Shown here: positions 2,530 through 61,599 of the stretch, piece after piece | Layout: each line of letters begins with the position of its first letter | Numbering within the stretch: the first letter of the stretch is position 1 | Source of the DNA: a virus | Strand: one strand, 5' to 3' | Virus record (IMG/VR): IMGVR_UViG_3300047160_003799 | Length of the DNA stretch: 64,000 bases | Notes under the pieces: model-generated | The model's database searches: none | What the model was told of the DNA's origin: nothing | What the model saw: only the letters and a program-made list of their open reading frames with translations | Made by a program: the position numbers and the translations under genes

Positions 2530-2775
2530 GAGATAAGGCTGTAGGGATCCGTTCGGGTCCAGCTCTCCGTTCCTTCATCATCTCCGCGAGCGCATCCTCC
2601 TCATCTACGGGAGCACGCATGGTAGGGGAAAATCATGAGCTTGTCAAGAGGCTAGTCCATAAGGGGTTAGGTCCCTCGCCAGAAAAAAGTGTATCTACCT
2701 GTTGTTTGCCGACAGGAGAGGTGTATCGTGGCGTTCGTGGGCGATACGAGGGGAAGACAAGAAAGGACGAGGACC
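2530..2775. promoter_or_regulatory. divergent intergenic region between leftward and rightward gene blocks (probable divergent promoters)
   Basis: 246-bp non-coding gap between a minus-strand gene and the first plus-strand gene; contains TTG..-like hexamers but no confident -35/-10 call. Confidence 0.3.
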
Positions 2776-4200
2776 ATGAGACTCAGCTACGAGATCCCCG
2801 CCGAGAACCTTCCCGAGCTGGAGAAGAAGATGGGTCTCCTGCAGAAGCGTGTCGCGAAGCTGGTCGCGAAGGGCTTCAAGCTCGACGGCGAGATGGTCGG
2901 GCTCAAGGTCATGGATAAGGGCGTGGTCAAGCCCGCGCCTGGCGAGGATCCCGAGCACCCCACGAAGTTCGTGTCCTACAGGCTGGTTGAGGTCACTGGC
3001 GACACGCCCAAGGTTTCGGGCTGGGAGTTCATCGCGACACTCCAGCACGAGGACGGTGGCACGATCCTGCGTCCGCTCCCGACTTCCGACGTGGCTGACC
3101 GTGAACTGGACCCGTTCCGCGCTGCGAGCCCTGTCTGCGATCACTGCGGGTTCAATCGCCGTCGCAACAACACCTACGTCGTCCGTAACGTGGACACGGG
3201 CGAAATGAAGCAGGTCGGCTCGACTTGCCTTGGCGACTTCCTGGGCACGGGCCAGAACCCGCACATGATCGCCACCTACGCTGAGCTGCTCGTGGCCGTG
3301 AAGCGGATGGTCGAGGCCGCGCGCGAGTTCAAGGGTGCGGTTTCCACGCGGACCCTGGTTCCGTTCGAGGAGTTCCTCGCGGCGTGTGTGTCCGTCGCCC
3401 GCGAGAACGGCTTCGTGTCCAAGGGCGAGGCGTGGAGGAGCAACGGTGCCAAGGTCGCGACCGCTTCCCTGGCGTGGCGCGCGATGTTCGTGACCGATCC
3501 CAAGAGCTACGACTTCGTCCAGGTCTCCGAAGACGACGTGCGCTGGGCGCAGAAGATCCTGGCTTGGGGCGAGGCGCGGCTGCAGGACGACGCTGAGCTG
3601 AACGACTACGAGCACAACCTTCGCGTGGTGGTCTACAGCGGCTACGTGGACACTTCCACGGCGGGTATCGGGGCGAGCCTCCTCAGCTACTACAAGCGGG
3701 AGCGCGAGGTCAAGCAGGGCCAGAACCAGCACAGCGAGCACTTCGGGACTGTCGGGAAGCGCGAGAGCTTCGTCCTGACCGTCAGGAGTGTCAAGGAATT
3801 CGACAGTCGGTTCGGGCTCCGCAAGCTGGTCACGTTCAATGACCCGAAGGGCAACGTGGCGATCTGGTGGACGGGCGCGGGCTCCTTCAAGAAGAGCGAC
3901 GAGGGTAAGACTTACATTATCAAGGCGACGGTCAAGGACCACACTGTCTGGGGTCAGCACAACCTCAAGCAGACCGTCCTGACCCGCGCGACGGTCGAGG
4001 GGCGCGTCGAGCTTCCCCCGACTCAGGCTTCCGAGCCCGTGAAAGAGGCCCAGAAGCCCGTTGCGGCCCCTTCCGTGAAGCGCGCTCGCCCCTGGGAACG
4101 GCGGTATTTCCGCGCTCCGAACGTGAACGTTGTCGAGCCTGCGCCAATCGAAGAGGAGAACGGCATGGGCCGTGCGGATGGGCAGGGTCGCGCCGCGTAG
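2776..4200 (+). CDS. hypothetical protein with internal Cys cluster (CDHCGF...GSTCLG)
   Basis: ORF track frame. ATG at 2776 preceded by AAGGACGAGGACC; 475 aa from this start. Confidence 0.6.
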   Translation: MRLSYEIPAENLPELEKKMGLLQKRVAKLVAKGFKLDGEMVGLKVMDKGVVKPAPGEDPEHPTKFVSYRLVEVTGDTPKVSGWEFIATLQHEDGGTILRPLPTSDVADRELDPFRAASPVCDHCGFNRRRNNTYVVRNVDTGEMKQVGSTCLGDFLGTGQNPHMIATYAELLVAVKRMVEAAREFKGAVSTRTLVPFEEFLAACVSVARENGFVSKGEAWRSNGAKVATASLAWRAMFVTDPKSYDFVQVSEDDVRWAQKILAWGEARLQDDAELNDYEHNLRVVVYSGYVDTSTAGIGASLLSYYKREREVKQGQNQHSEHFGTVGKRESFVLTVRSVKEFDSRFGLRKLVTFNDPKGNVAIWWTGAGSFKKSDEGKTYIIKATVKDHTVWGQHNLKQTVLTRATVEGRVELPPTQASEPVKEAQKPVAAPSVKRARPWERRYFRAPNVNVVEPAPIEEENGMGRADGQGRAA

Positions 4201-5302: not shown

Positions 5303-6283
5303 GTGAGAAAAGATGCTGACATTCTGATCGTCGGGGCTGGTCCCGCTGGCCTTGCGGCTGCGGTGAACGCTTCGAGCGAGGGCCTGCACACCGTCGTTGT
5401 GGACCGTGGGCCTTGCGGTGGTCAGGCTGGCGCGTCGGCCCTGATCGAGAACTATCCTGGCTTCCAATTCGGTATCCCTGGCGATGAGCTGATGCAGCGC
5501 ATGGCGCACCAGGCTGAGCGCTTCGGTGCCGATATCCGAGAACAGGCCGAAATCACGGCTTTCGAGCGCGCGGACGGCATGTTCATCGTGACGGCTGGTG
5601 GCGACGAGATCCACGCCCGTTCCGTCCTGGCGGCTACTGGAATCAAGTACGCCCAGCTCAACGTGCCTGGCATGAACCTCAAGGGTGTGCTTGTCGGAGC
5701 TGCGGCTGTGGAAGCTCCCAAGCACCGCGACGAGGACATCTTCATCGTGGGTGGTGGGAACAGCGCTGGACAGGCTGCGGTTCACTTCGCCCACTACGCC
5801 AGGAAGGTCTCGCTGGTGGTCCGCGACTGTGCGCTCTCGTCGTTCATGAGCGCGTACATGGTCGATAAGCTGGAACACACCGCGAACATCGAGATCATCT
5901 ACTGCTCGACGGTCGAGGAGATCATGGGCGACGGGCACGTCCAACAGCTTCGGATCAAGAACACGAGGGACGGCAAGGTGACGACGGTGCCCGCTGCGGC
6001 CCTAATCATCCACATCGGCGGCAAGCCCAGCTCTCAGTGGGGCCAAGGGCTCGGTATCCTGCTGGACCCCCTGGGATACGTGGTCACTGGCACCGACATC
6101 GGAGCTGGTTGGCCTGACGCTTCCAGAGCGCCGCTCTTCCTCGAAACCTGCGTGCCTGGCTGCTTCGTGGCTGGCGACGTGCGCCACAACGCAACGAAGC
6201 GCTGCGCTACCGCCGTGGGCGACGGTGCCATGGCAGTTGCACTGATCCACCAGTACCTCATGAAGTACACGAGGAGACCATGA
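5303..6283 (+). CDS. thioredoxin-reductase-like FAD/NAD(P)-binding oxidoreductase, apparently lacking the redox-active CxxC
   Basis: Motifs [15 protein letters not shown] (FAD GxGxxG), GGQAG...ENYPGF (TrxR-like GGQ...NFPG), [12 protein letters not shown] (NAD GxGxxG), CFVAGDV (C-terminal FAD motif). No CxxC seen between the two Rossmann motifs. Confidence 0.7.
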
Positions 6284-6408
6284 ACGCGGAGCAGAAGAGG
6301 CAAGTCGAGGAGGAGGTAGGGATCGGAGCTGTGGGGGTCGCGATAGTCGCGTCCTTGATCGCACTCTGGATCGCAAACCTCTTGGATCTGGTTTGGGTTC
6401 TCGGATAG
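6280..6408 (+). CDS. small hydrophobic peptide (42 aa)
   Basis: Manual: ATGA overlap with previous gene; [42 protein letters not shown]. Confidence 0.35.
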
Positions 6409-6910: not shown

Positions 6911-7177
6911 ATGAGTCTCAAGACTGGCGTTACGCGGTTCACCCCCAAGGCGGCGAGATTGCTCGCTGCACACCTGGTCTCGAATCCCAGCTTTGTCGAG
7001 CTGGGCCAGCTCATCCTGCAAGTCGCGAACAGAGTCGGATCCAGGTACGTCATGGACTCCGTTGAGATCTGGATCGAGGACGAGAACGATCTCAAGCAAG
7101 AGGAGCTGGACGAGGCGTCGGACCCCTTCAAGGGAGTTCCCCAAGGCGACCAGGGTTTCTATCACGACCACGACTGA
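6911..7177 (+). CDS. hypothetical protein (88 aa)
   Basis: ORF track; GGAGG RBS. Confidence 0.5.
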   Translation: MSLKTGVTRFTPKAARLLAAHLVSNPSFVELGQLILQVANRVGSRYVMDSVEIWIEDENDLKQEELDEASDPFKGVPQGDQGFYHDHD

Positions 7178-7191
7178 GAAAGAGGTGATCT

Positions 7192-7542
7192 GTGGAACGA
7201 GGCAACATTCACGACGACATCGACATTGACAGCTCGGAGCCGTTCAGACCGATGACTACGAAGGAGCTGGGAGAGCGCTTCCTGGTCTACAAGAAGGATC
7301 CACTGGAAGCCGCGCGCCTGGCCTTCCGAGACGTTGTGCGGTTCGCTCCGCACACCGACTTCCCCGTCAAGGGCAAGGAGGAGCTGGGAATGCTCTACGC
7401 CTTCTCGGAGCCCTACTTGCAGGGCCTTTGGGGAGAGAAGAAGGCGCGCAAGCTCATCAAGCGGCTCAACAAGCTCGCCAGCTTGCTTGGGCTCAACAGC
7501 TACGAGGATCTCTGGCGAGAGGAGTGGGACGATGACGATTAG
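7192..7542 (+). CDS. hypothetical protein (116 aa)
   Basis: ORF track; GTG start in GAAAGAGGTGATCTGTG context. Confidence 0.5.
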   Translation: MERGNIHDDIDIDSSEPFRPMTTKELGERFLVYKKDPLEAARLAFRDVVRFAPHTDFPVKGKEELGMLYAFSEPYLQGLWGEKKARKLIKRLNKLASLLGLNSYEDLWREEWDDDD

Positions 7543-8864: not shown

Positions 8865-9340
8865 AGGCACGGACGCGGAAGCTCATCCATCTCCTCAAGG
8901 GCGGATACCCTGTTGTCGCTGACCTTCCCTGGCTCAAGGGGAACGTCTTTGGCTACAACGAGGAGCGGAAGGTCTTCCGCGTTCGTGAGGGGGCAGTAAC
9001 ACTTGAGATTCCATTCGAGGCACCAGAAAGAACGGATGTGGTGCTGGCACCTATCGAGGGAACGTGGACGTTGTGCCTGCCAGCTCACCTGCGGGTGAGA
9101 AACGCGCTCCGCGAGGGAACCCTCAAGAGGATCCACGTCAACCAGCACCACATCCGCGCCAACATGAAGGATGGGCTTGACCGTCCGATCTTCACCGTGA
9201 AGGTAGGCAAGCTCAACTTCTACGGGCGGCAGGTCAGAATTCTGGGACCATCCGAGCTGATTTACCGCCCGTGCAACCCCCTCTCTTGCGGGGCAATGGC
9301 ATGGGTCGAGACCCGTGCCGAAGTCGAGGTGATCCCGTAG
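8861..9340 (+). CDS. hypothetical protein (~159 aa)
   Basis: GTG 8861 in frame of ORF 8840..9340, overlapping previous stop. Confidence 0.5.
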   Translation: MKARTRKLIHLLKGGYPVVADLPWLKGNVFGYNEERKVFRVREGAVTLEIPFEAPERTDVVLAPIEGTWTLCLPAHLRVRNALREGTLKRIHVNQHHIRANMKDGLDRPIFTVKVGKLNFYGRQVRILGPSELIYRPCNPLSCGAMAWVETRAEVEVIP

Positions 9341-9407
9341 GTTAAGTAAAATCTCACTCGCTGCTTTACCGCGCGCTATCTTGCGATATGGTCGCGATAG
9401 GTGAGTT

Positions 9408-9752
9408 GTGAGCGTCAAAGGAACGGTTTACCTGCTTCACTTCGAGACGCCTTACAAGCACGCGGGACACTACATCGGCTGGACCAAGACACCTGCTGAG
9501 GAGCGCATGGCGCTACACGTTAGCGGGCGGGGCTCGCCTTTGGTTAAGGCAGCGGTCGGTGCGGGCTCGAATGTGCTGCTGGTTATGACCTGGGAGGACG
9601 AGGATCGGCATTTCGAGCGCGCCCTGAAAGAGCGACACAACGCCAAGGGGATCTGCCCGAAGTGCCGCGCCGCTTACAACGAGAAGGCCCGCAACAGGAT
9701 GCGGGAAACCCGAGCCAACGCGAGGAGTGTGTATCGTGAACGAGCAGCCTAA
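9408..9752 (+). CDS. GIY-YIG-like nuclease domain protein (free-standing, 114 aa)
   Basis: TVYLLHF(x10)HYIGWT then R and E downstream fits GIY-(10-11)-YIG spacing; CPKC Zn knuckle at C-terminus. Confidence 0.45.
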   Translation: MSVKGTVYLLHFETPYKHAGHYIGWTKTPAEERMALHVSGRGSPLVKAAVGAGSNVLLVMTWEDEDRHFERALKERHNAKGICPKCRAAYNEKARNRMRETRANARSVYRERAA

Positions 9753-10041
9753 GCCCGAGGTCGGTATGGGCGCCAGCCGTGGCTACGGATCGGACTCCTA
9801 CCCCGCTACCATCGTCAAGGTCAGCTCCTCTGGCAAGACACTCTGGATCGAAGAGGACGACTACACGTTCAATCCCAAGGCTGGGGAGCACGAGGACAAG
9901 TACATCTACTCGCGCCGCCCTGGCGGCAGACAGTTCAAGTACACGCTGCGTCAGGACGGCATGTTCCGCGAGGTGGGCGCCAGGCGTGGAGGGACGCTGG
10001 GCATCGGCTTCCGTAGGTTCTACAACGACCCGTGCTTCTAG
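9727..10041 (+). CDS. hypothetical protein (104 aa)
   Basis: ORF track; alternative GTG start at 9736. Confidence 0.45.
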   Translation: MCIVNEQPKPEVGMGASRGYGSDSYPATIVKVSSSGKTLWIEEDDYTFNPKAGEHEDKYIYSRRPGGRQFKYTLRQDGMFREVGARRGGTLGIGFRRFYNDPCF

Positions 10042-10133
10042 CAAGCACGTCTGGGGAGGCGACACCGCCTCCCCTGTGGCACGAGCTATGCAGAGTTTTC
10101 TGAGCCGATAGGGTGGAAGAAAGGAACTAAGTC

Positions 10134-10349
10134 ATGCTGCGAAACGAAGAGGTTCTTAGTCCGAGACCTGTAGGCGACCCGAGCTGCGTGGCGTGCGAGA
10201 GCAAGCTCTACGTCCACGGCATGAAGGCCGACCGCGTCATGAGGATCTTCGCGTGCGAGTTCTGCGCGCCTGGCATGAGTGACGACGAAGCGGACATGCT
10301 CCACTTCGAGGCGAACTGCTGCGAGGACGTTGGCGAAGTCCTGCGCTGA
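10134..10349 (+). CDS. Zn-ribbon protein (CxxC...CxxC)
   Basis: ORF track; CVACESKLY...ACEFCAPG. Confidence 0.5.
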   Translation: MLRNEEVLSPRPVGDPSCVACESKLYVHGMKADRVMRIFACEFCAPGMSDDEADMLHFEANCCEDVGEVLR

Positions 10350-10370
10350 GACAAGAAGGAAAGGTGCAAT

Positions 10371-10683
10371 CGTGAAACTCCTGACCAAAGACATCCTCAA
10401 GAAGCTCCCCAAGATCGGCTCGACTTCCGAGCTGGAGTCCAAGGACGTGAAGGTGCCGCTCAAGCTGTTCGGCGGCGGCTCGTGGACGTGGTACGTCACG
10501 GAGTTCGACGGGACGGACGAGATGTTCGGCTACGTGAAGGGCCTGGACAACGAGCTGGGCTACTTCTCGTACAAGGAGCTGGCGACGGCGAAGTTCCCCC
10601 CGTTCGGGCTTCCAGTCGAGCGCGACAAGTTCTGGGATCCGAACACGACTCTGGAACAGGTCATGAAGGGGGAGAAGTCGTGA
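10371..10683 (+). CDS. hypothetical protein, DUF2958-like (W-x-W-Y-V-T-E-F-D motif)
   Basis: GTG 10371 after AAGGAAAGGTGCAATC; sequence KLPKIGST...GGGSWTWYVTEFDG...FGYVKG recalled as DUF2958-like. Confidence 0.45.
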
Positions 10684-10934
10684 GCGCGGAGAAGGAACGC
10701 CCGAAGCAGACGCACGTGGAGACTTCGTGGGCGAGCCCGAATAAGAAGATGGCCGTTTTCCCTGGCCTCTTCGACTACAGCGGATTCGGCTACGGGACAC
10801 TGTTTCTCGACGCCGAAGGTACGAACGAGTGGCTGACAACGAGTCAGGCCGTGGCACGAGCCAGTGAGCTTGGGCTCAAGTTCAAGTATCACGACTCGCT
10901 TGAAGGCTACACAGGGACTTACCTGGGCGACTGA
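10680..10934 (+). CDS. hypothetical protein (84 aa)
   Basis: GTG 10680 overlapping previous stop (GTGA); ORF 10482..10934 frame. Confidence 0.45.
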   Translation: MSAEKERPKQTHVETSWASPNKKMAVFPGLFDYSGFGYGTLFLDAEGTNEWLTTSQAVARASELGLKFKYHDSLEGYTGTYLGD

Positions 10935-10954
10935 CCCAAGAAAGGACGTGATCT

Positions 10955-11088
10955 GTGCTTACGTTTATCGTCATCGTGTTTGTCCTGCTTCTCCTGCTTG
11001 GTCTCTGGGCGGTCATGGCCCGTCGCCAGAACGGTGGCTGGAGTGGCGGCAGCTTCGGCGGCTACGACGATTGGGATGACGACTGACC
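10955..11088 (+). CDS. micro membrane peptide 1 (44 aa; TM helix + GGWSGGSFGGYDDWDDD tail)
   Basis: Manual; GTG start in GAAAGGACGTGATCTGTG context. Confidence 0.4.
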
Positions 11089-11106
11089 CGAGGAAAGGAC
11101 AAGATC

Positions 11107-11187
11107 TGTGGAAGCACTTGTTGCTGTGCTTGGCACGCTCATCATCATAGGCATCCTCCTGGCGTTCGCGAGTAGTGCTAACGACTG
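11107..11187 (+). CDS. micro membrane peptide 2 (26 aa, single TM)
   Basis: Manual; same upstream motif GAAAGGACAAGATCTGTG; VEALVAVLGTLIIIGILLAFASSAND. Confidence 0.3.
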
Positions 11188-11208
11188 ACCAAAGAAAGGA
11201 TGTGACCT

Positions 11209-11326
11209 GTGTTCATTCTTCCGTGGACCGTTGTTGCTCAGATTGTTGTGCTTCTGATCGGGAGCGCGGTCGCGACGGCCATCGAGAAGGGCGGCGACGG
11301 CGAGAAGCCGAAGGAGAGTGCCTGAT
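11209..11326 (+). CDS. micro membrane peptide 3 (39 aa, single TM)
   Basis: Manual; upstream GAAAGGATGTGACCTGTG; VFILPWTVVAQIVVLLIGSAVATAIEKGGDGEKPKESA. Confidence 0.35.
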
Positions 11327-11504
11327 GGCCCCTGCGCGCGATACGGAGCCCGTGGCTGCAGCGCTGCAAGCTCTCGCGGCACTCTACGCCATCGAGGTGC
11401 GACTCGACTACGACGGCAAGCTCCAGCTCCACGCGAGCATCGTCCCGAAGGAGAACAAGCCCGCGAAGAAGGCGAAAAAGGCCAGGAATAAGGTCCTGGC
11501 ATGA
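11325..11504 (+). CDS. hypothetical protein (59 aa)
   Basis: ATG 11325 in frame of ORF 11175..11504, ATGA-coupled to previous. Confidence 0.35.
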   Translation: MAPARDTEPVAAALQALAALYAIEVRLDYDGKLQLHASIVPKENKPAKKAKKARNKVLA

Positions 11505-11541
11505 ACCGTGCATAAGGTTTTGGTCCCAACGGAGGTGTGAC

Positions 11542-11742
11542 GTGGATACGGACCTGGTGGACGGAATCATGCGCTACGAGAACGGAGACATGGAGCAGGA
11601 CGAGATGGTGGATCTGTTCCAGGCGCTCGTGGACAACGGGATGGCCTGGACACTCCAAGGACACTACGGACGTACGGCCAAGATGCTCATCGATGAGGGC
11701 CTCGTGAAGCTCTCTAAGACCCCTTCCAAGAAGGAGAAGTGA
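11542..11742 (+). CDS. hypothetical protein (66 aa)
   Basis: ORF track. Confidence 0.45.
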   Translation: MDTDLVDGIMRYENGDMEQDEMVDLFQALVDNGMAWTLQGHYGRTAKMLIDEGLVKLSKTPSKKEK

Positions 11743-11745
11743 TCT

Positions 11746-11895
11746 GTGGACAACTTGCGCGACCCCGACGACGTGAGACTGACCGACGCCGATAAGGAGC
11801 GTGAGGCGAACACGGACCCCAAGAGTGAGGTCGAGGACGACGACATCGACTGGACGGACGACATCCACTACCGCGAGCTTGGGGGAGGAGACTGA
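11746..11895 (+). CDS. small acidic protein (49 aa)
   Basis: Manual; GTG in GAGAAGTGATCTGTG context. Confidence 0.35.
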   Translation: MDNLRDPDDVRLTDADKEREANTDPKSEVEDDDIDWTDDIHYRELGGGD

Positions 11896-11898
11896 GCC

Positions 11899-12060
11899 AT
11901 GACTACAACGACGACTGAGGCGAATGAGCTGCACGCGCTTCGGAGCGAGGTTGTCAAGCTCCGCGAAGAGGTCAAGCTCCTCAACGAGATCCTGGTCATG
12001 TATCAGGACACAGAGAAGCGCCGTGTCGAGCGCGCCCGTACGACGGGCATCGAGCTGTAA
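11899..12060 (+). CDS. small coiled-coil protein (53 aa)
   Basis: Manual ATG 11899 after GGGAGGAGACTGAGCC. Confidence 0.4.
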   Translation: MTTTTTEANELHALRSEVVKLREEVKLLNEILVMYQDTEKRRVERARTTGIEL

Positions 12061-12063
12061 GCC

Positions 12064-12294
12064 ATGGTGGCGCTACGGGAAAAGAAGGGTGAGCCGCTAC
12101 GGCGGCTCACCGACACCGCGTTCATCGAGTGGGTCTGGCACGTGTTGGAACACGAGGCAGAGGAGCCTTTCAAGCTCTGGGACGCGCTCGAATTCGCGCA
12201 CCTGGCAGGCTACGAGGTTGTCTACGAAGACGACAAGCCTGGAACCCACGCGGACCCTGAGCTAGAGGTCAAGGTCTGGGAATTCCACAAGTAG
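12064..12294 (+). CDS. hypothetical protein (76 aa)
   Basis: ORF track. Confidence 0.5.
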   Translation: MVALREKKGEPLRRLTDTAFIEWVWHVLEHEAEEPFKLWDALEFAHLAGYEVVYEDDKPGTHADPELEVKVWEFHK

Positions 12295-12313
12295 TGTAAG
12301 AAAGGGCATAGTC

Positions 12314-12799
12314 ATGGAATGCGGCATCTGCGGCAAGAAGACCGATACGGCTCTCATGCACGCTGGGCCTTACTGCAGCCCGAAACACGAGAGGATGCTC
12401 AGGGCGCGTCGGACAGCGCTACACGACCAGCTCCTCGCGGAGCCTGACTTCTCGCTCCCCGACGAGCTTGACTTGCCCGCGTTCGAGCGGTTCTCGCTCA
12501 AGGTGGCGCTCAAGTCCCTGCAGACCTTGTGTCCCAAGCATCGCGCGGAGATCGAGGAGCGGATGCCTCTCTTGCTCGTTCCCGAAGAGATGGCGCTCAA
12601 GGTCAAGGAGGAGATCCTGCAGCACATCCCCGACGAGTACGTCGAGCTGCAAGAGGCGCGCGGGCATGAGCGGCTGTTCCACGGCGGAACCTTCTCCTTC
12701 AAGCGCAACATCCCCGCTCAGGTCATCATCGACGCGCTCGCTCAGACGAGCTTCGTTTCGCGGAAGCGGACGAAGAAGACGCGGCGGAAGGCTGGGTAA
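12314..12799 (+). CDS. hypothetical protein with N-terminal Cys4 knuckle (CGICGKK...CSPKHE)
   Basis: ORF track. Confidence 0.55.
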   Translation: MECGICGKKTDTALMHAGPYCSPKHERMLRARRTALHDQLLAEPDFSLPDELDLPAFERFSLKVALKSLQTLCPKHRAEIEERMPLLLVPEEMALKVKEEILQHIPDEYVELQEARGHERLFHGGTFSFKRNIPAQVIIDALAQTSFVSRKRTKKTRRKAG

Positions 12800-12802
12800 C
12801 TT

Positions 12803-12820
12803 CTACAAAATTGTAGAACA
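12803..12820. promoter_or_regulatory. perfect palindrome TTCTACAAAATTGTAGAA in a 150-bp intergenic gap (candidate operator)
   Basis: Read directly; 8-bp arms with 2-bp centre, immediately after stop of 12314..12799. Confidence 0.4.
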
Positions 12821-12951
12821 CATCGAGCTGTAACGCTGTGATATCGAGTTGGTCCGCAATATGCAAAGGTGACAATCCCCAGAGGTGAGCTAGGAAACGA
12901 ATGGTTCGTTAACTGACTCGCCTCTTTTCTGTGTGTGTTGGAGAGTGATCT

Positions 12952-13566
12952 GTGCTTCACGAGAACGAGAACATCGGCCCCGACGAGGCGCGCGAAGAGC
13001 AGCACGACTACGAGGACGCGGTCAACGAGGACATGGAGTCCATGAGCGACGAGGACGAGGACGACGAGACGGCCCCCGTGGACGACGCGCCCCTCAGCGA
13101 CGACGAGGACGACGAGGAAGAGGACAGCGAGGCCGTCGAGGACGAGCTGGCGAGCCCCGAGATCAAGGGCAGCGAAGGCAATCTCGGTTTCCTCGCGGCC
13201 ATGCTCGGCAACGTTCCCGACGCGGTTCAGTCCGTGTTCGAGGAAGAGGACGGGCACACCAAGAGAAGCCGTGAGCTGTTCGAGGGCCTTCCGTCCGTCG
13301 AGGTGGAGTCGCTTGACCAGCTCCGCGCCGACACCGACGCCTTCTTCATGCGCCGCGAGGACGCGCACGGCGATCTCACCAAGCTCTCGCTCCACGTTCT
13401 GCAGCGTGGCCTGGCGACCGCCGAAGAGCTGCTGCGGCGGATCAAGGACGGCAAGGTCGAGGGCGTCACGGAAGTGGCTCCCGACCACGTGATCTACAGC
13501 GACATCAAGGCGCTCAAGGCCGAGATCAAGAGTCGGCTCTCCAGCGAGGGCACGAAGGCCGCGTAA
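12952..13566 (+). CDS. highly acidic protein (204 aa; poly-D/E N-terminal half)
   Basis: ORF track; GTG in GAGAGTGATCTGTG context; DEDDEDDETAPVDDAPLSDDEDDEEEDSEAVEDE. Confidence 0.55.
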   Translation: MLHENENIGPDEAREEQHDYEDAVNEDMESMSDEDEDDETAPVDDAPLSDDEDDEEEDSEAVEDELASPEIKGSEGNLGFLAAMLGNVPDAVQSVFEEEDGHTKRSRELFEGLPSVEVESLDQLRADTDAFFMRREDAHGDLTKLSLHVLQRGLATAEELLRRIKDGKVEGVTEVAPDHVIYSDIKALKAEIKSRLSSEGTKAA

Positions 13567-25460: not shown

Positions 25461-25907
25461 ATGAAGTGCCCTGGTTGCGGAAACGCGGACGCCTATGTCG
25501 GACTCCGTGATGTCAAGTGTGCTTCGCTTCTCTGTCGCTTCTTTGACAACGACTACGCGACGGAATACGCGGCAGAGCTTCTGGATAAGATCCCAGAGAT
25601 CGACCTACAGATCACGACTACAGAGGTCAAGCCAGCTTCGGAGCTACAGAGATACAGCTCTTCTGCTGGCTATCGCCAAGCAGCGGTAATACCACAAGCT
25701 GTTGAGGGGCAACAGTCCTTTACCATTGGAACGAGGTGGACACCGATCATGCTGGATCGAGTGTATCTTCTAGCCAATACGCTATCGTATCCTCCTCCAT
25801 TCATAGATGTCACGGATGTGCCTGGTGTCAGCTTCACTGTGACCTGGCTCGGTAGCTTCGACCTTACTCCAACCGATGACGTGATTATCGCCTGGTTCAC
25901 TGACTGA
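25461..25907 (+). CDS. hypothetical protein with N-terminal Zn-ribbon (CPGC...C)
   Basis: ATG 25461 in frame of ORF 25392..25907. Confidence 0.5.
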   Translation: MKCPGCGNADAYVGLRDVKCASLLCRFFDNDYATEYAAELLDKIPEIDLQITTTEVKPASELQRYSSSAGYRQAAVIPQAVEGQQSFTIGTRWTPIMLDRVYLLANTLSYPPPFIDVTDVPGVSFTVTWLGSFDLTPTDDVIIAWFTD

Positions 25908-34837: not shown

Positions 34838-37800
34838 TTACTCGAAGGCTCCAATCGATGGTGCCGTCGAAGAGCGGACGACGCCGATGATATCTAGCGG
34901 GCAGACCGTGTTAGCGAAGCCCTTGCTCTTGGCTGGACTACCTGCCACGAGCGCGTACTTCGCCTTAGCATCTGCTAGGCCCATAACTCCAGTTGGACTC
35001 TCGTTGACGAGAACCTGAGCACTCGTAACAACGTCGCTTGCAAGCGGGAATGACGGGAGCGCAGGACCAGACTGGCCGTTGAAGCTACCCTTCCAGAGAT
35101 CGTTGGAGACCGTCATGGTTAGGTCGCTATTGCCATCATTCTCAGCATATAGCGGCTTGCCTGTAGCGATGATCAGGTTGTTACGGACATCTAGGCCATA
35201 GTTCCCGATCTGCGTTCCAGAGCCAGATCCGCCCCACGTTGGGCGATAGACGACGAAGCTCGACTGAGTGACGATGGTGTTGTTGTAGATCTGCGCGCCT
35301 TGGATTCCACGGAACTCGATGCAGGAGTCCGTATTGTTGCAGATGAGGTTGTTACGGTAGATCTGGTTGACAGCTTCGACCTTCGGGTTCATGTGGTTTG
35401 GATCGAAGAACGATGCGCCAGTGTCACCGCCGCACATGATAGCTGCAGCCTTGATGATGCCGCTGATGAGGCAATCCTCTACGAGCAAGTTCTCTGAACC
35501 ACCCTTGAAGAAGATGCCTGGGCAAGTGAGGGAACCGTTGACTCCATCGTGGAGCCAGCAACGGCGCACGACGGCATGACGAACGGCGACAGCATCTACG
35601 ATGGCGTTCGATAGTGAACCCGAGAAGTCGCAATCCTCAAGATAGAGGCCATCCACAGGATTGAACGAAGAACCGCTATAGACACCAGCGATCTTGATCG
35701 AGGCGCCTACACCAGATGCCATCGCCTTGCTTGTGACATTGCGCAGAATGAGGTTCGATGCAGGGCCAACAACGTGGATGTTATTGCCCTTACCGTTGAT
35801 GACCGTGAGGTTCTGCACAAGCACGTTGGAAGCCTGGACAGCCATCTCGCCAGTGTTCTTGAGGTCGATGATAACGGTGGCTCCTGCTGCACCACGGACG
35901 ATAGACCAAGCCGCCGCCGTCCCTGACTTCGTGATGCCAGGGTAGTTCGACCCGTCGTAGGTTCCAGCAGCCAGTTCAACAATCGTTCCTGGGGCGACCT
36001 TGTTGAAGGCGTTCTGGACGTTACCTATCGACGGATCGACGGCGACAACATTGGTTGCCCCCACGACGGTCGGAGCCGTGAACCATGCTGGTTCGCCTGG
36101 GCTCGGAGTCGGGGTAGGCGTTGGTGTCGGTGTAGGAGTAGGTGTCGGCGTTGGAGTCGGTGTCGGAGTAGGCGTTGGTGTTGGAGGAGATGGAGTAGGT
36201 GTTGGAGGCGTCGGTGTTGGCGTAGGGGGTGTCGGAGTCGGTGTTGGTGGTGTTGGAGTTGGCGTAGGTGGTGACGGCGGGCCACCACCTGGAGGTGCAT
36301 CGCCCTTCTGCGTTAGGAAGTAGGCGTTGTACCACATCTGCCAAGCGAAGTAACGAGGCTTGCCAGCGAACTCCGACGCCTGGATCTTGTTGTACTGCCC
36401 GTATGCGCGGAGGCACGACTGTTGAGCAAGAGTCTTCTTCGTAGCTGGGTCTGGGCAGTATGCAGCGTGCTGCGAGACATAGAGCGGCGTCGAGCTACCA
36501 GCCTGATTGACCCACATCGTCAGATCTGGCGTATTCGACACAGAGTCATAGCAGACAACAAGGTTGCTGTTCTGACCACCAGTCGGATCCGTCCACGGGA
36601 ACCCGATAACCTGCAGATACGCTTGCTGCTGGTTGTAAGACATCTGAGCGAGGGACACATCGCCAGTAACCTGAGCAGCTACACGGAGAGCGTGCATGAG
36701 CATCGTATCTTGGAACGACGCGATGCCAGGGAAGCCGACGAAGTTATAGGTCGTTGGCCCCGTAATGAGCAGCGCTCCAGAAGCGTTCTTGAAGTTCGCG
36801 TTCTTCGGGAAGAGAACTCGAAGATCCGAACCTGCTGGCTGGTTATCGAATGTTCCACTTCCGTTGACATAGAACTTCGGCATCGAGATGAAGCCGTTGT
36901 AGACTGGCGCAGCCTTGATGCCAGCAATGACGGCCTGGATCTGAGGCATTACGTTACGGATGCCGATCTTCTGCTGGTAGTAGGCGAGGCACTGGAGCGG
37001 ACGTGCTGCTCCACGAGTCTCAACGTACTTCGTCGGAAGCTGAGCAGACGACGTGATGAAGTCAAGCAGACGGTTGATCGCGTCGAGCGTCGGCTGGTCC
37101 TGGTTATCAACGTACCAGTCAACGAGACCCATCATGTAGAAGTGAGTCTGGTTGGCGAAAGCCTTGCCTGACGCTGGCACAGAGTAGACGTTGACCATCC
37201 AGTCATGCTCGTACTGAGCTTGCTTGAGGAAGCCGAGATTACCTGTGCGCTTGTAGAGGCGATAGTAATCGCGGAGGTCATCCGACTCTGTATCCCACTC
37301 TACGTTAGTAGATGTGCTCTTGTTCTGCTTCGGCACGAACGAGGCGTAGCTCGCTTGGAGATCTGCAACAGTTGTGTTGAAGCCAAGAGAGTTGTACCAA
37401 GCAACCTCTTCATCCTCAGTCATCCAGTCCGTCGAGGCAGGATAGCCCCAGATGCCACCGCTTGGCGGCGACGGTGTTGGAGTCGGGGGAGACGGAGTTG
37501 GTGTAGGCGGCGAGGGTGTTGGCGTCGGAGGAGAAGGCGTGGGTGTAGGCGGGGAAGGTGTCGGTGTCGGGGGCGACGGAGTAGGAGTCGGAGGAGACGG
37601 TGTTGGTGTAGGAGGCGAAGGTGTTGGTGATGGCGGCGACGTAACTGTGAAGTCGCCTGCAGGTAGGTCAGCCATACCTGCTGCATTTACCGTGACTGGA
37701 CCTGTGACCGCATTTGCGGGAACTGGCAGAAGAAGTGTGCTTGTAGTGCCTACGTCGGTCCTCTGCAAGTTCTGAGTTGAGGTCGAACCAGAGAACGTGA

Positions 37801-38242
37801 CACCAACAGGAGTCGGAAGATTCTCGCCAACGATTGTTACTGGCGTTCCAACAGGCCCCGATGTAGGTGACATCGAGTCGATGATTGGAGTTGGCGTCGG
37901 TGTAGGTGTGGGCGGGCTAGGTGTTGGAGTCGGTGGCGATGGTGTTGGCGTAGGAGGAGACGGGGTAGGTGTCGGAGGTGAAGGAGTAGGAGTAGGCGGG
38001 GAAGGTGTAGGAGAAGGCGGGATTGGCGCATTCTGCTGAATGAGCCAGTTGTAGTAACCAACCGCCGAATAAAGATCCGCCTGGACTTGATTGAGAAGTC
38101 CAGCGAGCTTGTTAACCTGGAATGGGTTCAATGTGATGGGATACGTCACATCGTCCTGAGCATGGAATTGCTCTATCAGGGACGAGAAGTCGAAAGTAGG
38201 TCCTGTGTCTGTCATGGCAATTCCTTTGTGGGCTAGGTGCAA
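34838..38242 (-). CDS. large multi-domain protein with three Pro-Thr linkers, TIG/Ig-like module and C-terminal right-handed beta-helix (pectate-lyase fold): tailspike/depolymerase-like
   Basis: ORF track. (PTPSPPT)n linkers at three sites. VTIVGENL...VTFSGS Ig-like segment. C-terminal repeats NNTIV / RNNLI / NIHVVG / EDCDFSG typical of parallel beta-helix. Confidence 0.7.
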   Translation of the reverse strand: MHLAHKGIAMTDTGPTFDFSSLIEQFHAQDDVTYPITLNPFQVNKLAGLLNQVQADLYSAVGYYNWLIQQNAPIPPSPTPSPPTPTPSPPTPTPSPPTPTPSPPTPTPSPPTPTPTPTPIIDSMSPTSGPVGTPVTIVGENLPTPVGVTFSGSTSTQNLQRTDVGTTSTLLLPVPANAVTGPVTVNAAGMADLPAGDFTVTSPPSPTPSPPTPTPSPPTPTPSPPTPTPSPPTPTPSPPTPTPSPPTPTPSPPTPTPSPPSGGIWGYPASTDWMTEDEEVAWYNSLGFNTTVADLQASYASFVPKQNKSTSTNVEWDTESDDLRDYYRLYKRTGNLGFLKQAQYEHDWMVNVYSVPASGKAFANQTHFYMMGLVDWYVDNQDQPTLDAINRLLDFITSSAQLPTKYVETRGAARPLQCLAYYQQKIGIRNVMPQIQAVIAGIKAAPVYNGFISMPKFYVNGSGTFDNQPAGSDLRVLFPKNANFKNASGALLITGPTTYNFVGFPGIASFQDTMLMHALRVAAQVTGDVSLAQMSYNQQQAYLQVIGFPWTDPTGGQNSNLVVCYDSVSNTPDLTMWVNQAGSSTPLYVSQHAAYCPDPATKKTLAQQSCLRAYGQYNKIQASEFAGKPRYFAWQMWYNAYFLTQKGDAPPGGGPPSPPTPTPTPPTPTPTPPTPTPTPPTPTPSPPTPTPTPTPTPTPTPTPTPTPTPTPTPSPGEPAWFTAPTVVGATNVVAVDPSIGNVQNAFNKVAPGTIVELAAGTYDGSNYPGITKSGTAAAWSIVRGAAGATVIIDLKNTGEMAVQASNVLVQNLTVINGKGNNIHVVGPASNLILRNVTSKAMASGVGASIKIAGVYSGSSFNPVDGLYLEDCDFSGSLSNAIVDAVAVRHAVVRRCWLHDGVNGSLTCPGIFFKGGSENLLVEDCLISGIIKAAAIMCGGDTGASFFDPNHMNPKVEAVNQIYRNNLICNNTDSCIEFRGIQGAQIYNNTIVTQSSFVVYRPTWGGSGSGTQIGNYGLDVRNNLIIATGKPLYAENDGNSDLTMTVSNDLWKGSFNGQSGPALPSFPLASDVVTSAQVLVNESPTGVMGLADAKAKYALVAGSPAKSKGFANTVCPLDIIGVVRSSTAPSIGAFE
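36098..36288. repeat. PT-linker coding microsatellite 3 (GGTGTNGGNGTNGG... repeats)
   Basis: Read directly; encodes PPTPTPTPTPTPTPTPTP on minus strand. Confidence 0.7.
37462..37642. repeat. PT-linker coding microsatellite 2
   Basis: Read directly; encodes SPPTPTPSPPTPTPSPPT... x8. Confidence 0.7.
37889..38030. repeat. PT-linker coding microsatellite 1
   Basis: Read directly. Confidence 0.7.
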
Positions 38243-47336: not shown

Positions 47337-47816
47337 TCATGGCCGTGGTTGTCGTAGCTGTACTAGTCCAGCAGGAGGCGGTGGAATAGAGTGAGCAATG
47401 ATCTCAAGCGTCTGGTGGAATGGAGCGTGTGAGATGTCGAATACGGTGTGGTCGCGCCATAGGCGGAACGGAAAATTGTTGCCTGTCGCGTACTCTATAG
47501 TCCACACAGAATTGGCATAGTGAAACGTGATCTCGCCAACAACCGAACCTCCAGGGGGCGGAAGATAGGATGGTCTTGTCGTTGTAAGAAGTCTGACGAA
47601 GTCAAGGATCCAGTCAAGTTGAATGCTTCTGTAAGGGTTACGGTAAGGCAAAACAGGATTGTCATACTGGATCCTAGCCGCTATCCGAGCGATTCGCATC
47701 GGATGCGTTGGATCTTGGAGCCAGTGCTTGAGGGCTTGCTCCGTTCGATAGCTGATAGCTTCTAGGAGCGTAAGCCTGACGTTCTCACTCATCGAAGCTC
47801 CTAGTAGGAGTACCAA
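47337..47816 (-). CDS. hypothetical protein (159 aa)
   Basis: ORF track. Confidence 0.5.
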   Translation of the reverse strand: MVLLLGASMSENVRLTLLEAISYRTEQALKHWLQDPTHPMRIARIAARIQYDNPVLPYRNPYRSIQLDWILDFVRLLTTTRPSYLPPPGGSVVGEITFHYANSVWTIEYATGNNFPFRLWRDHTVFDISHAPFHQTLEIIAHSIPPPPAGLVQLRQPRP

Positions 47817-48703
47817 ACAGATTCGTCTGGTGGGGCGCCGTCTGCCTGCACTTCAACGGCGAACTCCCCATAAAGTGAACGAAAGATACGGATATCGGTA
47901 CGAAGACCCGTCAAGGTAATGTGATTGCCCCAGACCTGGTGCCAGATACCTGCTGGCTTAGTTTCGTCATCGTGGAAGAAGCCGAAGACTTCGTGAAGAA
48001 GATCATGCAAGGTGTCGAATGCAGCTTCTTCATTACTTGACGGCGCATGTTTCATCCATACGAGGATACCAGTAGCGAGCTTGCCGAAGAAGCCTGGATC
48101 CACTGGATCAAATCTCGGTTGAGAAGGGATCTTGACCTTCGCCTTGATCTCTGTGATCGGCTTGGCAAGCGGGCGTGCCCAGCGCTTGACCTTATCCTGC
48201 TCACCTACGACAGAATGGCTGTATACGAGGATGTAGTTAGATGATTCTGGAATGAAGTTGAAGGTGATCTCCGTATCACTGTTCGGAACGGCTGGAGTCA
48301 GCTTGACGCGAATGGAGAACTTTGCGCCAATAGCCTTCTCACTCGTTACCTTGAAACCATTGGCGTTTGCGATACCGTTGATTTCTTGGAGAACAGCGTT
48401 TTCATCCATCCCTTTCGTCTTCTCAGCAATGGCACGAAGCTTATCTTTGAGATCATTCTCGAATCTCAGATCGCGCGCAGCCTCTTCTTGTGGCTTGTGC
48501 TGTTCCTTTTCTCTTTCTTTCGCTTTGTCTGCCATCCACTGAGCCCAGAGCGCCTTGGCACAGCCAGGACAAATGCCGTGCGTTGTCGGTTCTCCCTTTG
48601 TCGTACCACCAGGGAGATCCAGATCAACTTTGCACCAGGCACAGATCTTCTTGGCCTCTAGCAAGAGCTTGAGCTTGAGCCCTACGTGTTCGCGCTCCCG
48701 CAT
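47801..48703 (-). CDS. leader-A family protein with Zn knuckle (MREREHVGLKLKLLLEAKKICAWC...CPGC)
   Basis: ORF track. Confidence 0.55.
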   Translation of the reverse strand: MREREHVGLKLKLLLEAKKICAWCKVDLDLPGGTTKGEPTTHGICPGCAKALWAQWMADKAKEREKEQHKPQEEAARDLRFENDLKDKLRAIAEKTKGMDENAVLQEINGIANANGFKVTSEKAIGAKFSIRVKLTPAVPNSDTEITFNFIPESSNYILVYSHSVVGEQDKVKRWARPLAKPITEIKAKVKIPSQPRFDPVDPGFFGKLATGILVWMKHAPSSNEEAAFDTLHDLLHEVFGFFHDDETKPAGIWHQVWGNHITLTGLRTDIRIFRSLYGEFAVEVQADGAPPDESVWYSY

Positions 48704-48743: not shown

Positions 48744-49667
48744 TCATCTCTTCTTCCAGTTGAGCTTCTGGCCGCTGAGATGCTCCACGAGCGCGACGAC
48801 ATCCTCTTCTGGTATTCCAGTGATCTTGGCTACCCGTTCCACAGCCATGCGAATACCGCGCTCGTTCCAGCCCTCGCGTCCAGCTATGATCTTGAAGTGC
48901 CCGTAGACATCGAGTGCTTTCATAGCGTCGTAACGTTGTGAAGCTGGAAGAGGAGCTGGAGCGGGCGAGGGCGTTTGCTTTTTCTTCTTCTTGTCATCAC
49001 CATTGCCTAGATCAGTCTTGACGGACTCCAACAGTTGCTTGAGCTTGAGGCCGACGTACTCGCGGCTTTCATCTTGCTCTTTAGGTGAGATGTCTTTCAT
49101 GTGACTTACTCTCGGTTGACCATAGCGAAGAAGCCCAAACAGTTGTGTGAGCTTGTGCTGTGGATTCGTTGGCTGTTTGCCTACTATCGGCCTAACAAGA
49201 CCTGTGCTACCGAAGTCAGGCTCAAACGGATTCGAGAAGAACCACTGAACCAGCTTGAGCCATTCGCTCTTATCGCTTGGCTTGGTCACAGAGTTCATGA
49301 TCTTCGACATACCAGAAGCAAGCTGGAACTCGATGCCATGAGCCTGTGCAATGTCGGATGGGTGCATTCCATTGAGGATGTCCTTAGCGATACGAGCTAG
49401 CTTAGGAATAGGGAGCGCACGGGCTTGATCCTCGATCTCCGCTTTAGGCTCTCTGATTGTTCTTCGAGTAAGCGCGCTACTTTTTGCTTTCGTTGCTCGA
49501 TCATAGAGCATCTTGACGAACTTCGGTGATACACCTTCCTTAGCGGCGATCTCCTCGACAGTCTCGCCAGCATGAATGCGACTCATGACCTCATCTCTAT
49601 CGAGTGGCTTTTTCTTTTCCTCCGCTTCGAGCAGCTCCATGAGCTTGAGGTAGACGCTTTCTTTCAT
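48744..49667 (-). CDS. leader-A family protein with HTH-like segment and a second internal leader-A copy (res ~201-215)
   Basis: ORF track; MKESVYLKLMELLEA at N-terminus and SREYVGLKLKQLLESV internally (DNA ~49022-49067). Confidence 0.55.
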   Translation of the reverse strand: MKESVYLKLMELLEAEEKKKPLDRDEVMSRIHAGETVEEIAAKEGVSPKFVKMLYDRATKAKSSALTRRTIREPKAEIEDQARALPIPKLARIAKDILNGMHPSDIAQAHGIEFQLASGMSKIMNSVTKPSDKSEWLKLVQWFFSNPFEPDFGSTGLVRPIVGKQPTNPQHKLTQLFGLLRYGQPRVSHMKDISPKEQDESREYVGLKLKQLLESVKTDLGNGDDKKKKKQTPSPAPAPLPASQRYDAMKALDVYGHFKIIAGREGWNERGIRMAVERVAKITGIPEEDVVALVEHLSGQKLNWKKR

Positions 49668-51127: not shown

Positions 51128-51954
51128 AGGATCTGGCCCTCCCGACGAGAGTGCATGTAGTAGGAGGGATTTGTTTGTAGACGACCACCGAAGGCTCCGT
51201 CATGAAGGTTCCCAACCAAGATGTAAGCTTTGGCGAGAGGGAACCAGGACAAGACCAAGATGACCGAACGAGAGTAAATCACTTCAATAGGATCGCTCGT
51301 AAGCATGGGATCAACTGTCTGCGCAAAAATGCCTTGATGTGAAAATGGTTCTGAGAAGTCCCAGGCTTGAGTAACCTCGTGCCACAAGTCAATAGGAACA
51401 TCAGCAAAGGAACGATGGGTGTGCAAGTGCAAGTTGCGCTGTACCCACTGCTCTATCTGATGGCAGAGCTTCTGTTCGCCTGGCGTATTGGTGAAGTTGA
51501 CGGTTTCAGTCTGCTGGCGTTCATGCTGAACGTAACGATAACCTATCTCTTGATCGCCACGATTCACAGGATCGCCGTAGAGCACTGGCTTGCCTTGCTC
51601 GAAGGTCATGGAGTCCAATGCTAGGCGACCCTCCACACGCGCTAGCTGAATGATGCTGCCGTGCCGTCCAGGGCTTTCTGGACTGAGGAGCGGATCCTGC
51701 TGCGCAGCTCTTTCATTACTTACGGCTACTGTCACGAGAATAGTTCGCCCCCTAAGATCACGGCGATGGAGTGCCCGCCCTCGTCCGAAGCCCAAGCTTT
51801 CTGCCAGAATGTGGAGATAACGGAAAACTTCCCCCTGGTGTTCTTGCTTGGCCCAGAGCTGGAGCTTCTTCCTGAGTTCTTCCTCTTCTGGAGTAAGCTT
51901 TGGAGCATCCGCTTCTAGCAGTTGCCTGAGCTTGAGTCCTACGAACTCTTTCAT
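51124..51954 (-). CDS. leader-A family protein (276 aa from MKEFVGLKLRQLLEA)
   Basis: ORF 51124..51972 trimmed to Met preceding the motif. Confidence 0.55.
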   Translation of the reverse strand: MKEFVGLKLRQLLEADAPKLTPEEEELRKKLQLWAKQEHQGEVFRYLHILAESLGFGRGRALHRRDLRGRTILVTVAVSNERAAQQDPLLSPESPGRHGSIIQLARVEGRLALDSMTFEQGKPVLYGDPVNRGDQEIGYRYVQHERQQTETVNFTNTPGEQKLCHQIEQWVQRNLHLHTHRSFADVPIDLWHEVTQAWDFSEPFSHQGIFAQTVDPMLTSDPIEVIYSRSVILVLSWFPLAKAYILVGNLHDGAFGGRLQTNPSYYMHSRREGQIL

Positions 51955-61596: not shown

Positions 61597-61599
61597 AGA

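Follow-up and report, generated by a model that had tools for sequence, protein, structure and literature searches.

A window of 64,000 nucleotides (nt), the whole stretch of viral DNA analysed here (IMG/VR virus record IMGVR_UViG_3300047160_003799), carries on its plus strand three consecutive, very small open reading frames (ORFs), designated pep1 to pep3, each preceded by a copy of the same 30-31 nt leader block (10928-10957, 11080-11110 and 11182-11211). This locus is probably a tandem array of three very small coding genes, each lying behind a 30-nt translation-initiation cassette, within a co-directional operon of accessory genes. A preliminary description of the window had proposed three tandem micro-genes with a common leader, and the proposal is supported by the three leader copies, open frames with gene-like codon usage, hydrophobic 17-residue segments, ribosome-binding sites and conservation in a diverged relative, contig L012. 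That description treated the leader as a bare repeat; its nature as an extended Shine-Dalgarno (SD) sequence and the recurrence of its last eight bases, GAYCTGTG, are added here. The GTG starts assigned to all three ORFs are present, as is the pep1 tail GGWSGGSFGGYDDWDDD, and of the peptide lengths given (44, 26 and 39 amino acids, aa) the 26 aa of pep2 is correct, whereas pep1 and pep3 are each one residue shorter, at 43 and 38 aa. The leaders, the ORFs and a partial fourth leader-like site are the following:

Leader 1: 10928-10957, plus strand; CGACTGACCCAAGAAAGGACGTGATCTGTG, divided as CGAC-TGA-CCCA-AGAAAGGACGTGATC-T-GTG, that is, stop codon, extended SD sequence and GTG start.
Leader 2: 11080-11110, plus strand; CGACTGACCCGAGGAAAGGACAAGATCTGTG, 31 nt, with one additional G and with CAA replacing CGT.
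Leader 3: 11182-11211, plus strand; CGACTGACCAAAGAAAGGATGTGACCTGTG.
pep1: 10955-11086, plus strand; 43 aa from a GTG start, MLTFIVIVFVLLLLLGLWAVMARRQNGGWSGGSFGGYDDWDDD, with a predicted N-terminal hydrophobic helix followed by RR and a Gly/aromatic/acidic tail.
pep2: 11108-11188, plus strand; 26 aa from a GTG start, MEALVAVLGTLIIIGILLAFASSAND, in the same frame as pep1 and separated from it by TGA and 21 nt.
pep3: 11209-11325, plus strand; 38 aa from a GTG start, MFILPWTVVAQIVVLLIGSAVATAIEKGGDGEKPKESA, with a stop that overlaps the ATG of the next gene (TGATG).
Partial fourth leader-like site: 7171-7194, plus strand; CGACTGA-GAAAGAGGTGATCTGTG, nhmmer E = 1.1, between an 88-aa gene (6911-7177) and a 116-aa gene (7192-7542).

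The leader consensus is CGACTGACC(C/A)(G)A(A/G)GAAAGGA(C/T)(G/A)(T/A)GA(T/C)CTGTG, with pairwise identities ranging from 27/30 to 27/31 and a similarity that, in the alignment, ends sharply at both block borders. Each block opens with GAC TGA, where the ORF before it ends, and closes with the GTG of the next one, and the full intergenic sequence, including the previous stop, is repeated three times as originally reported. The consensus first put forward fits two of the copies, whereas copy 2 requires a 1-nt indel and the position written as a single "N" stands for three bases. The pattern of the 3′ half of the leader, GAAAGGANNNGAYCTGTG, is observed three times against 0.28 expected, a count reached in none of 100 shuffles, and an nhmmer profile of the block recovers only these three sites at E < 1e-6. 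Scanning for the leader pattern returned no match in IMG/VR and a single match in JGI metagenomes, to a contig that is 100% identical. The gene upstream of the partial fourth site also ends in Asp-TGA (…HDHD*). As a separate observation on gene ends, GAC-TGA terminates 6 of the 66 predicted plus-strand genes (6911-7177, 10680-10934, 10955-11086, 11108-11188, 11746-11895 and 25461-25907), where one or two would be expected by rough estimate, and this ending is also seen at orthologous gene ends in L012.

The three ORFs occupy the whole of the space from each GTG to the TGA of the next leader, and in same-composition shuffles three open frames, of which the two internal ones stop in frame at the TGA of the following leader, arise jointly with a probability of approximately 0.003. 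Kyte-Doolittle (KD) maxima over 17 residues are 3.22, 2.96 and 2.44 for pep1, pep2 and pep3, respectively, and hydrophobic stretches as strong as those observed arise in 0, 0 and 1 of 20,000 shuffles; all three peptides bear polar or charged tails. GC content by codon position, pooled over the three ORFs, is 0.66/0.40/0.72, compared with 0.61/0.40/0.75 in 15 reference genes of the same strand block. Codon log-likelihood scores of 0.43 (pep1), 0.33 (pep2) and 0.53 (pep3) bits per codon stand against a mean of 0.48 for pieces of true genes of the same length and a mean of -0.25 for spurious ORFs inside true genes, none of which (0/47) reaches the lowest of the three scores. A crude gene caller made for this analysis, combining codon score and SD energy, selects pep1 to pep3 among 66 plus-strand genes. 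Among public gene calls, pep1 appears as a gene in five contigs from ENA and the pep3 homologue in L012, a Logan contig, whereas pep2 and pep3 are uncalled in the ENA contigs. Judged from the sequence, the three ORFs look like genuine unannotated micro-genes for hydrophobic peptides. Searches of Pfam, PHROGs and NCBIfam gave no match to pep1 to pep3 below E = 0.01, and neither a word-indexed search nor an exhaustive phmmer search of protein collections returned a homologue of pep1. The peptides are ORFans, with no homologue among approximately 1.8 billion representative proteins, and any membrane target that they might have would be new.

Several other readings of the same DNA were considered and rejected. 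The 290-aa antisense ORF at 11062-11934 overlaps the DUF7417 gene, supported on the plus strand by a Pfam match, and is therefore a shadow ORF; readthrough of the upstream gene's TGA would give a frame with negative coding scores. A 77-aa two-helix fusion of pep1 and pep2, produced by readthrough of UGA-C and 21 nt, is unsupported, the shared frame having a one-in-three probability by chance. Homology among the three ORFs was likewise rejected, their nucleotide similarity lying within that of codon-shuffled controls; the amino-acid signal between pep1 and pep3 (p = 0.002) probably reflects only their common helix-then-tail layout.

The free 3′ tail of 16S rRNA, 3′-UCUUUCCUCCACUAG-5′, is complementary over nearly its full length to the core of the leader, AGAAAGGA(C/T)GTGA(T/C)C, where the tail is assumed to be of the commonest bacterial type, GAUCACCUCCUUUCU-3′, from which the host's own may differ. 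This tail has been described previously, with AGAAAGG-type motifs listed as its specific SD sequences (PMC5427494). When every position on both strands (approximately 128,000) was scored without gaps against the perfect complement, AGAAAGGAGGTGATCC, leader 1 was the best match (14/16) and leader 3 the second best (13/16), with leader 2, the weakest of the three (11/16), within the top 54. For leaders 1, 2 and 3, the predicted energies of the duplex with the tail are -21.1, -15.3 and -18.2 kcal/mol, respectively, ranking leader 1 third in the window and the partial fourth site (-20.7 kcal/mol) fourth, and pairing in leader 1 comprises contiguous runs of 8 and 6 nt with an internal mismatch between them. 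Approximately 16 of the 30 leader bases are predicted to form an extended SD sequence, with a stop codon before it and GUG after it. The array region has no RNA structure beyond that of shuffles (z = 0.06), no promoter-like site, no Rfam family and no terminator-like match on its plus strand.

The window contains 14 copies of the octamer GAYCTGTG where 5.7 ± 2.6 are expected, a number that none of 100 shuffles attains. Eight of these occurrences fall exactly on predicted plus-strand gene starts, all of them GTG (5303, 7192, 10955, 11108, 11209, 11746, 12952 and 22496), and a ninth, on the minus strand (61594-61601), also appears upstream of a GTG start. The phage appears to possess a start-associated motif, of which the three leaders would represent the longest and most mutually similar versions.

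A comparison is provided by L012, a 1,838-bp Logan contig (SRR32120253) that is syntenic with the window and is the sole diverged relative found, located by means of the 59-aa protein encoded downstream of pep3. Neighbouring genes share 81-86% DNA identity with those of the window, and 30 of 45 fourfold-degenerate sites (~67%) are identical. The L012 leader (79-108), CGACTGACCAAGGAAAGGACGTGATCTGTG, agrees with leader 3 at 27 of 30 positions and with leader 1 at 28 of 30, with no indels, a conservation of p = 0.003 relative to the neutral rate at fourfold-degenerate sites, and it is the best 16S-complement match in that contig. The preliminary description had held that a lack of conservation of the repeats in relatives would count against its proposal; in this only relative, the leader is conserved. 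The pep3 homologue encodes 48 aa with 45% amino-acid identity and differs by in-frame indels of 12 and 18 nt, with its start retained, the tail DGEKPKE(S/G)A conserved and its stop still overlapping the next ATG (TAATG). Upstream of the leader, the contig begins inside a hydrophobic ORF (…IFLIILGLVVGWRRLLEVVGAYGRGPD*) that ends GAC TGA CC. The peptide-coding DNA is approximately 50% identical between the two, diverging much faster than the neighbouring genes. The array, its leader and its reading frames appear to be conserved in L012, in a pattern that points to purifying selection on the leader cassette and frame-preserving change in the ORFs. At the start of the 49-aa gene further downstream (11746), L012 reads GACCTATG where the window has GATCTGTG. 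Apart from the array, the 37-nt spacer before the DUF7417 gene (11505-11541, corresponding to 432-468 in L012) is identical at 34 of 37 positions (p = 0.0004 against the 67% neutral rate), and other intergenic leaders in this region would therefore also be constrained. Further downstream, the 53-aa gene at 11899-12060 is replaced in L012 by an unrelated 81-aa gene (856-1101), the swap starting right after a conserved junction, GGAGACTGA(G/A)CCATG, as in a cassette exchange exactly at the gene boundary.

Eight short contigs from ENA and JGI soil samples (L001 to L007 and L013) are 99.9-100% identical to the window. L013 has two single-nucleotide polymorphisms in the 59-aa gene, and the only difference within the array among the eight is a 1-nt insertion in pep2, found in L001 and L004, which are from different samples. 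A megablast comparison of the region 9000-13000 with GenBank phages gave nothing, and blastn recovered a single stretch, 120 nt of the DUF7417 gene, in Streptomyces phages.

In the proposed mechanism, all three micro-ORFs would be read from one transcript, on which each cassette presents in order the previous Asp codon and UGA, the extended SD AGAAAGGA(C/T)GUGA(U/C)C, one base and the GUG start. A ribosome terminating on one micro-ORF would be 20-21 nt from the next start and could reinitiate there, and a fresh 30S subunit could also be captured by the long SD, each peptide then being made independently. The products, each a predicted hydrophobic N-terminal helix with a short polar tail, would most likely insert in the host cytoplasmic membrane. 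We infer that the array most likely grew by duplication of the cassette together with its ORF, after which the ORFs would have diverged beyond recognition with the cassette held by purifying selection. As a best guess, the peptides, which are small, fast-evolving, presumably non-essential and encoded amid accessory genes, may have the host envelope as their target and serve in functions such as host takeover or superinfection exclusion.

A number of observations weigh against this interpretation. The pep2 frame is disrupted in two of the eight contigs that cover it, where the inserted base (ATCAATCATA in place of ATC-ATCATA, in the region of 11141) cuts the peptide to 22 residues with loss of the helix; over 2.9 kb of L001 and 1.05 kb of L004, nothing else departs from the window sequence. 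As pep2 combines this frameshift with the lowest SD match and coding score of the three, it may be dispensable or decaying. Conservation is seen in one diverged relative, which is cut off inside the ORF upstream of its leader, and the pep3 homologue in that relative is weakly hydrophobic (KD 17-residue maximum of 1.3), so that the membrane helix of pep3 is not clearly conserved. The preliminary claim of single-pass hydrophobic peptides is supported in the window by the strong N-terminal helix predicted in all three, and is tempered for pep3 by this homologue. The in-phase antisense frame of the array is also positive in codon score, as is usual for GC-rich DNA, so that the strand is assigned from the co-directional context, the stop/start overlaps and the ribosome-binding sites. 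With regard to the leader, the GGAGG core is broken in every copy (GGACG, GGACA and GGATG), the rRNA offers no partner to the conserved 5′ part CGACTGACC beyond its stop codon, and pairing is scored against an assumed 16S tail of the widespread …CCUCCUUUCU form. A 17-nt SD ahead of a GTG start was found in Bradyrhizobium to bind 30S subunits strongly but to depress translation (PMC5711450), and a long SD might for this reason not mean high output.

Sequence elements similar in part to the leader have been described in other systems. The start-associated sequences (SAS) and extended SAS (ESAS) of Cluster K mycobacteriophages, with the 13-bp SAS consensus GGGATAGGAGCCC (Pope et al. 2011, PMC3203893), are likewise short, asymmetric repeats of one orientation that lie a few bases upstream of the starts of non-structural phage genes, contain the SD core and sometimes the upstream stop codon, and have conserved positions beyond those pairing with rRNA. 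However, SAS are present in 11-19 copies over half a genome, mostly before ATG, whereas the leader is present in three full copies and one partial copy, clustered on micro-genes and all before GTG, with only GAYCTGTG dispersed (8 plus-strand starts). In orientation and position the leader is compatible with SAS, which lie 3-7 bp upstream of starts in many copies, but it does not match the SAS consensus within two deviations and is unrelated to it apart from the SD core. The rreB and rreR small ORFs of alpha-proteobacteria, with SDs of 16-17 nt (Hahn et al. 2016, PMC5711450), share with the leader a near-complete complementarity to the 16S 3′ tail up to the GTG of a very small ORF, and in all three leaders the pairing stretch ends GAUC, followed by one base and GUG. 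The rre elements pair perfectly over 16-17 nt with the G of GTG as the last paired base, are single-copy and chromosomal, have their own 165-nt transcript with promoter and terminator, and encode conserved, soluble peptides of 14-18 aa. In contrast, the leaders reach 14/16 at best, against an assumed host 16S and with a central mismatch, leave one unpaired base before GUG, occur in three copies in a phage operon with no promoter or terminator of their own predicted, and precede hydrophobic, poorly conserved peptides of 26-43 aa.

Extended, start-codon-proximal SD pairing that aids GUG selection has been reported in S. aureus, together with many unannotated small ORFs (Kohl et al. 2026, PMC13009471). 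In both cases, pairing of spacer bases with 16S bases 5′ of CCUCC would help to place GUG starts, however the S. aureus extension consists of two extra A-U pairs, whereas in the leader the potential pairing extends across GUGAUC and leaves a single base ahead of the start codon, a proximity at which the duplex would probably not survive placement of that codon in the P site. PeSL cassettes, which are known from T4-type phages and combine a promoter and a terminator stem-loop (Arbiol et al. 2010, PMC2839356), resemble the leader as conserved intergenic cassettes flanking small, non-essential, fast-changing ORFans in plastic genome regions. Unlike PeSLs, the leader has no sigma-70-like early promoter and no terminator stem-loop, as judged from the absence of promoter-like sites (0) and the structure score given above, and would act, if at all, at translation. 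The array is not a member of the SAS, rreB/rreR or PeSL families because the defining features of these families are not all present.

Small single-helix membrane peptides of phages and bacteria include proteins of the class III or holin-like kind, type I toxins (TisB and Hok, for example) and small membrane regulators. The pep peptides share with them their size range and a layout of one helix and a short polar tail, but show no sequence similarity to any family in the searches made, no lysis gene among the neighbours tested and no sign of an antisense RNA.

Other explanations of the locus differ in which part of it is held to be functional. The leaders themselves might be the functional units and the peptides secondary, an over-long SD with GUG binding 30S subunits tightly and translating poorly, such that three sites in 280 nt would serve as a ribosome-regulated element, a transcript stabiliser or a 30S trap in the manner of the alpha-proteobacterial rreB/rreR mRNAs. 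The rreB-like architecture favours this explanation, as do the 90% conservation of the leader against approximately 50% for the ORFs and the loss of pep2 by frameshift while the flanking leaders stay intact. It is nevertheless unlikely: the complementarity is interrupted (8 + 6 nt) rather than perfect over 16-17 nt, the ORFs stay open through in-frame indels with the pep3 tail conserved, their codon usage is gene-like, each has a hydrophobic helix far beyond chance, and neither a promoter nor a terminator of its own is predicted for the element. Actinophage lysis cassettes are known to carry holin-like genes in tandem whose products have a transmembrane segment, and the peptides, which are small, tandemly encoded and each predicted to have one transmembrane segment and a charged C-terminal tail, might be a holin/antiholin set or holin-like helpers that time lysis, a function listed among the candidates of the preliminary description, together with membrane depolarisation and superinfection exclusion. 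No match to endolysin, amidase or any other lysis family was found in the plus-strand genes tested, from ~6 kb upstream to ~2.5 kb downstream, a set in which many neighbours are unknowns and which is not exhaustive; moreover, pep1 to pep3 match no holin family in Pfam, PHROGs or NCBIfam, the 26 aa of pep2 is below the typical holin length, and the structural and lysis part of the genome falls outside the window. Since no neighbouring gene tested matches a lysis enzyme, the holin interpretation appears weakened and is very unlikely.

Interpretations that place the function at the level of DNA have also to be considered. The 30-nt leader might be mainly a recombination linker for duplicating, deleting and swapping micro-gene cassettes, which would be compatible with a role in ribosome binding. 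The sharp homology borders at both leader ends with unrelated sequence between leaders, the L012 leader being no closer to the orthologous leader 3 than to the paralogous leader 1, as concerted evolution predicts, the gene swap at 11899-12060 directly after the GGAGACTGA(G/A)CCATG junction and the precedent of PeSLs (PMC2839356) are all consistent with a linker. However, the copies number just three or four, homologous exchange would hardly be efficient over so short a length as 30 bp, the promoter and stem-loop of PeSLs are lacking, no copy-number variant is found among the eight near-identical contigs covering the array, and selection for ribosome binding alone could account for the conservation, leaving a primarily recombinational role quite improbable. 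Alternatively, the region might be non-coding, with the repeats functioning as DNA sites, for instance an array of operators or iterons to which a phage protein binds. Three direct repeats of ~30 bp at spacings of 152 and 102 bp would suit such an array, and ESAS have been suggested as protein-binding sites (PMC3203893). The repeat, however, is superimposable to the base on the stop, SD and start signals and on the 16S complement, lacks dyad symmetry, and separates ORFs that are open, gene-like in codon usage, hydrophobic and in frame in L012, which makes this explanation barely plausible.

For the preferred interpretation, a tandem array of coding micro-genes, a further and decidedly speculative extension is that the cassette couples very tight, rreB-like and ribosome-regulated 30S capture with cassette-style recombination, resulting in a hypervariable micro-gene locus aimed at the host envelope; we regard this as having little likelihood. 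If true, membrane-peptide genes would be duplicated, replaced and lost between fixed translation signals, constituting a diversity-generating array, and a leader that controls ribosome loading or recombines would link actinophage start-associated sequences, rreB-type extended SDs and PeSL-type shuffling, which so far have been described separately. Genes of this size are routinely missed, as illustrated by the public calls that found one of the three here, and real micro-genes can be recognised by a long leader complementary to 16S rRNA: in 64 kb, both of the top-scoring rRNA-tail matches lie at unannotated peptide genes.

By gene content, the window is a portion of a large phage genome, derived from an uncultured soil phage. 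It contains four tRNA genes, PHROG matches that include a DNA polymerase exonuclease subunit, an RNA ligase, a 2OG-Fe(II) oxygenase and a DNA methyltransferase, and Pfam matches to a NUDIX-thymidylate kinase fusion and an SPFH protein. Genes are oriented on the plus strand to approximately 30 kb and on the minus strand beyond, and the array sits in the plus-strand block amid short genes without known function. Other neighbours are a pyridine-nucleotide oxidoreductase (5303-6283) and unknowns, and the nearest genes are the following:

DUF2958 protein gene: 10369-10683, plus strand; upstream of the array.
84-aa ORFan gene: 10680-10934, plus strand; C-terminus …YLGD* (GGC GAC TGA), its last codon and stop forming the 5′ end of leader 1.
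59-aa ORFan gene: 11325-11504, plus strand; downstream of pep3, the anchor that led to L012, with which it shares 81% nucleotide identity.
DUF7417 protein gene: 11542-11742, plus strand; Pfam match.
49-aa gene: 11746-11895, plus strand; start motif GATCTGTG at 11741-11748.

The sole database match of the 84-aa protein is its own cluster, from a 71.6-kb JGI contig, and no relative was found in IMG/VR or among 5.8 billion proteins. A scan of the IMG/VR locus L008 showed no leader-like repeats. The DUF7417 gene shares ~72% nucleotide identity over ~120 nt with the Streptomyces phages Zainub, Paolo, Endor1/2 and phiScoe25/54, and is the only part of the region 10000-13000 that matches GenBank phages in DNA searches. 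This similarity may hint at an actinobacterial host or at gene exchange; the corresponding neighbourhoods of these Streptomyces phages contain no comparable micro-genes. As a clue to host or donor, the oxidoreductase gene was uninformative, with only a 24% match in Allobacillus, and the matches of a 503-aa protein (2689-4200) are of only ~30% and come from large phages whose hosts differ widely. A small hydrophobic ORF of 42 aa is also found at 6280-6408 on the plus strand, its ATG overlapping the stop of the oxidoreductase gene (ATGA).

Repeated sequences of other kinds are present elsewhere in the window. On the minus strand, between 48654 and 61594, ten genes have a common, conserved 45-nt 5′ end encoding an N-terminus like MKEFVGLKLRALLEA. 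These genes form a paralogue family, several members of which are in tandem (for example 47801-48703, 48744-49667, 49664-51127, 51124-51972 and 51951-52874), and the members tested have no Pfam or PHROG match. A 1134-aa protein with a beta-helix domain, encoded on the minus strand at 34838-38242, contains three blocks of a 21-nt (7-residue) periodic repeat within 36102-38041, and three 27-nt direct repeats rich in GGTCC/TGGTCC are located at 53-142 on the plus strand.

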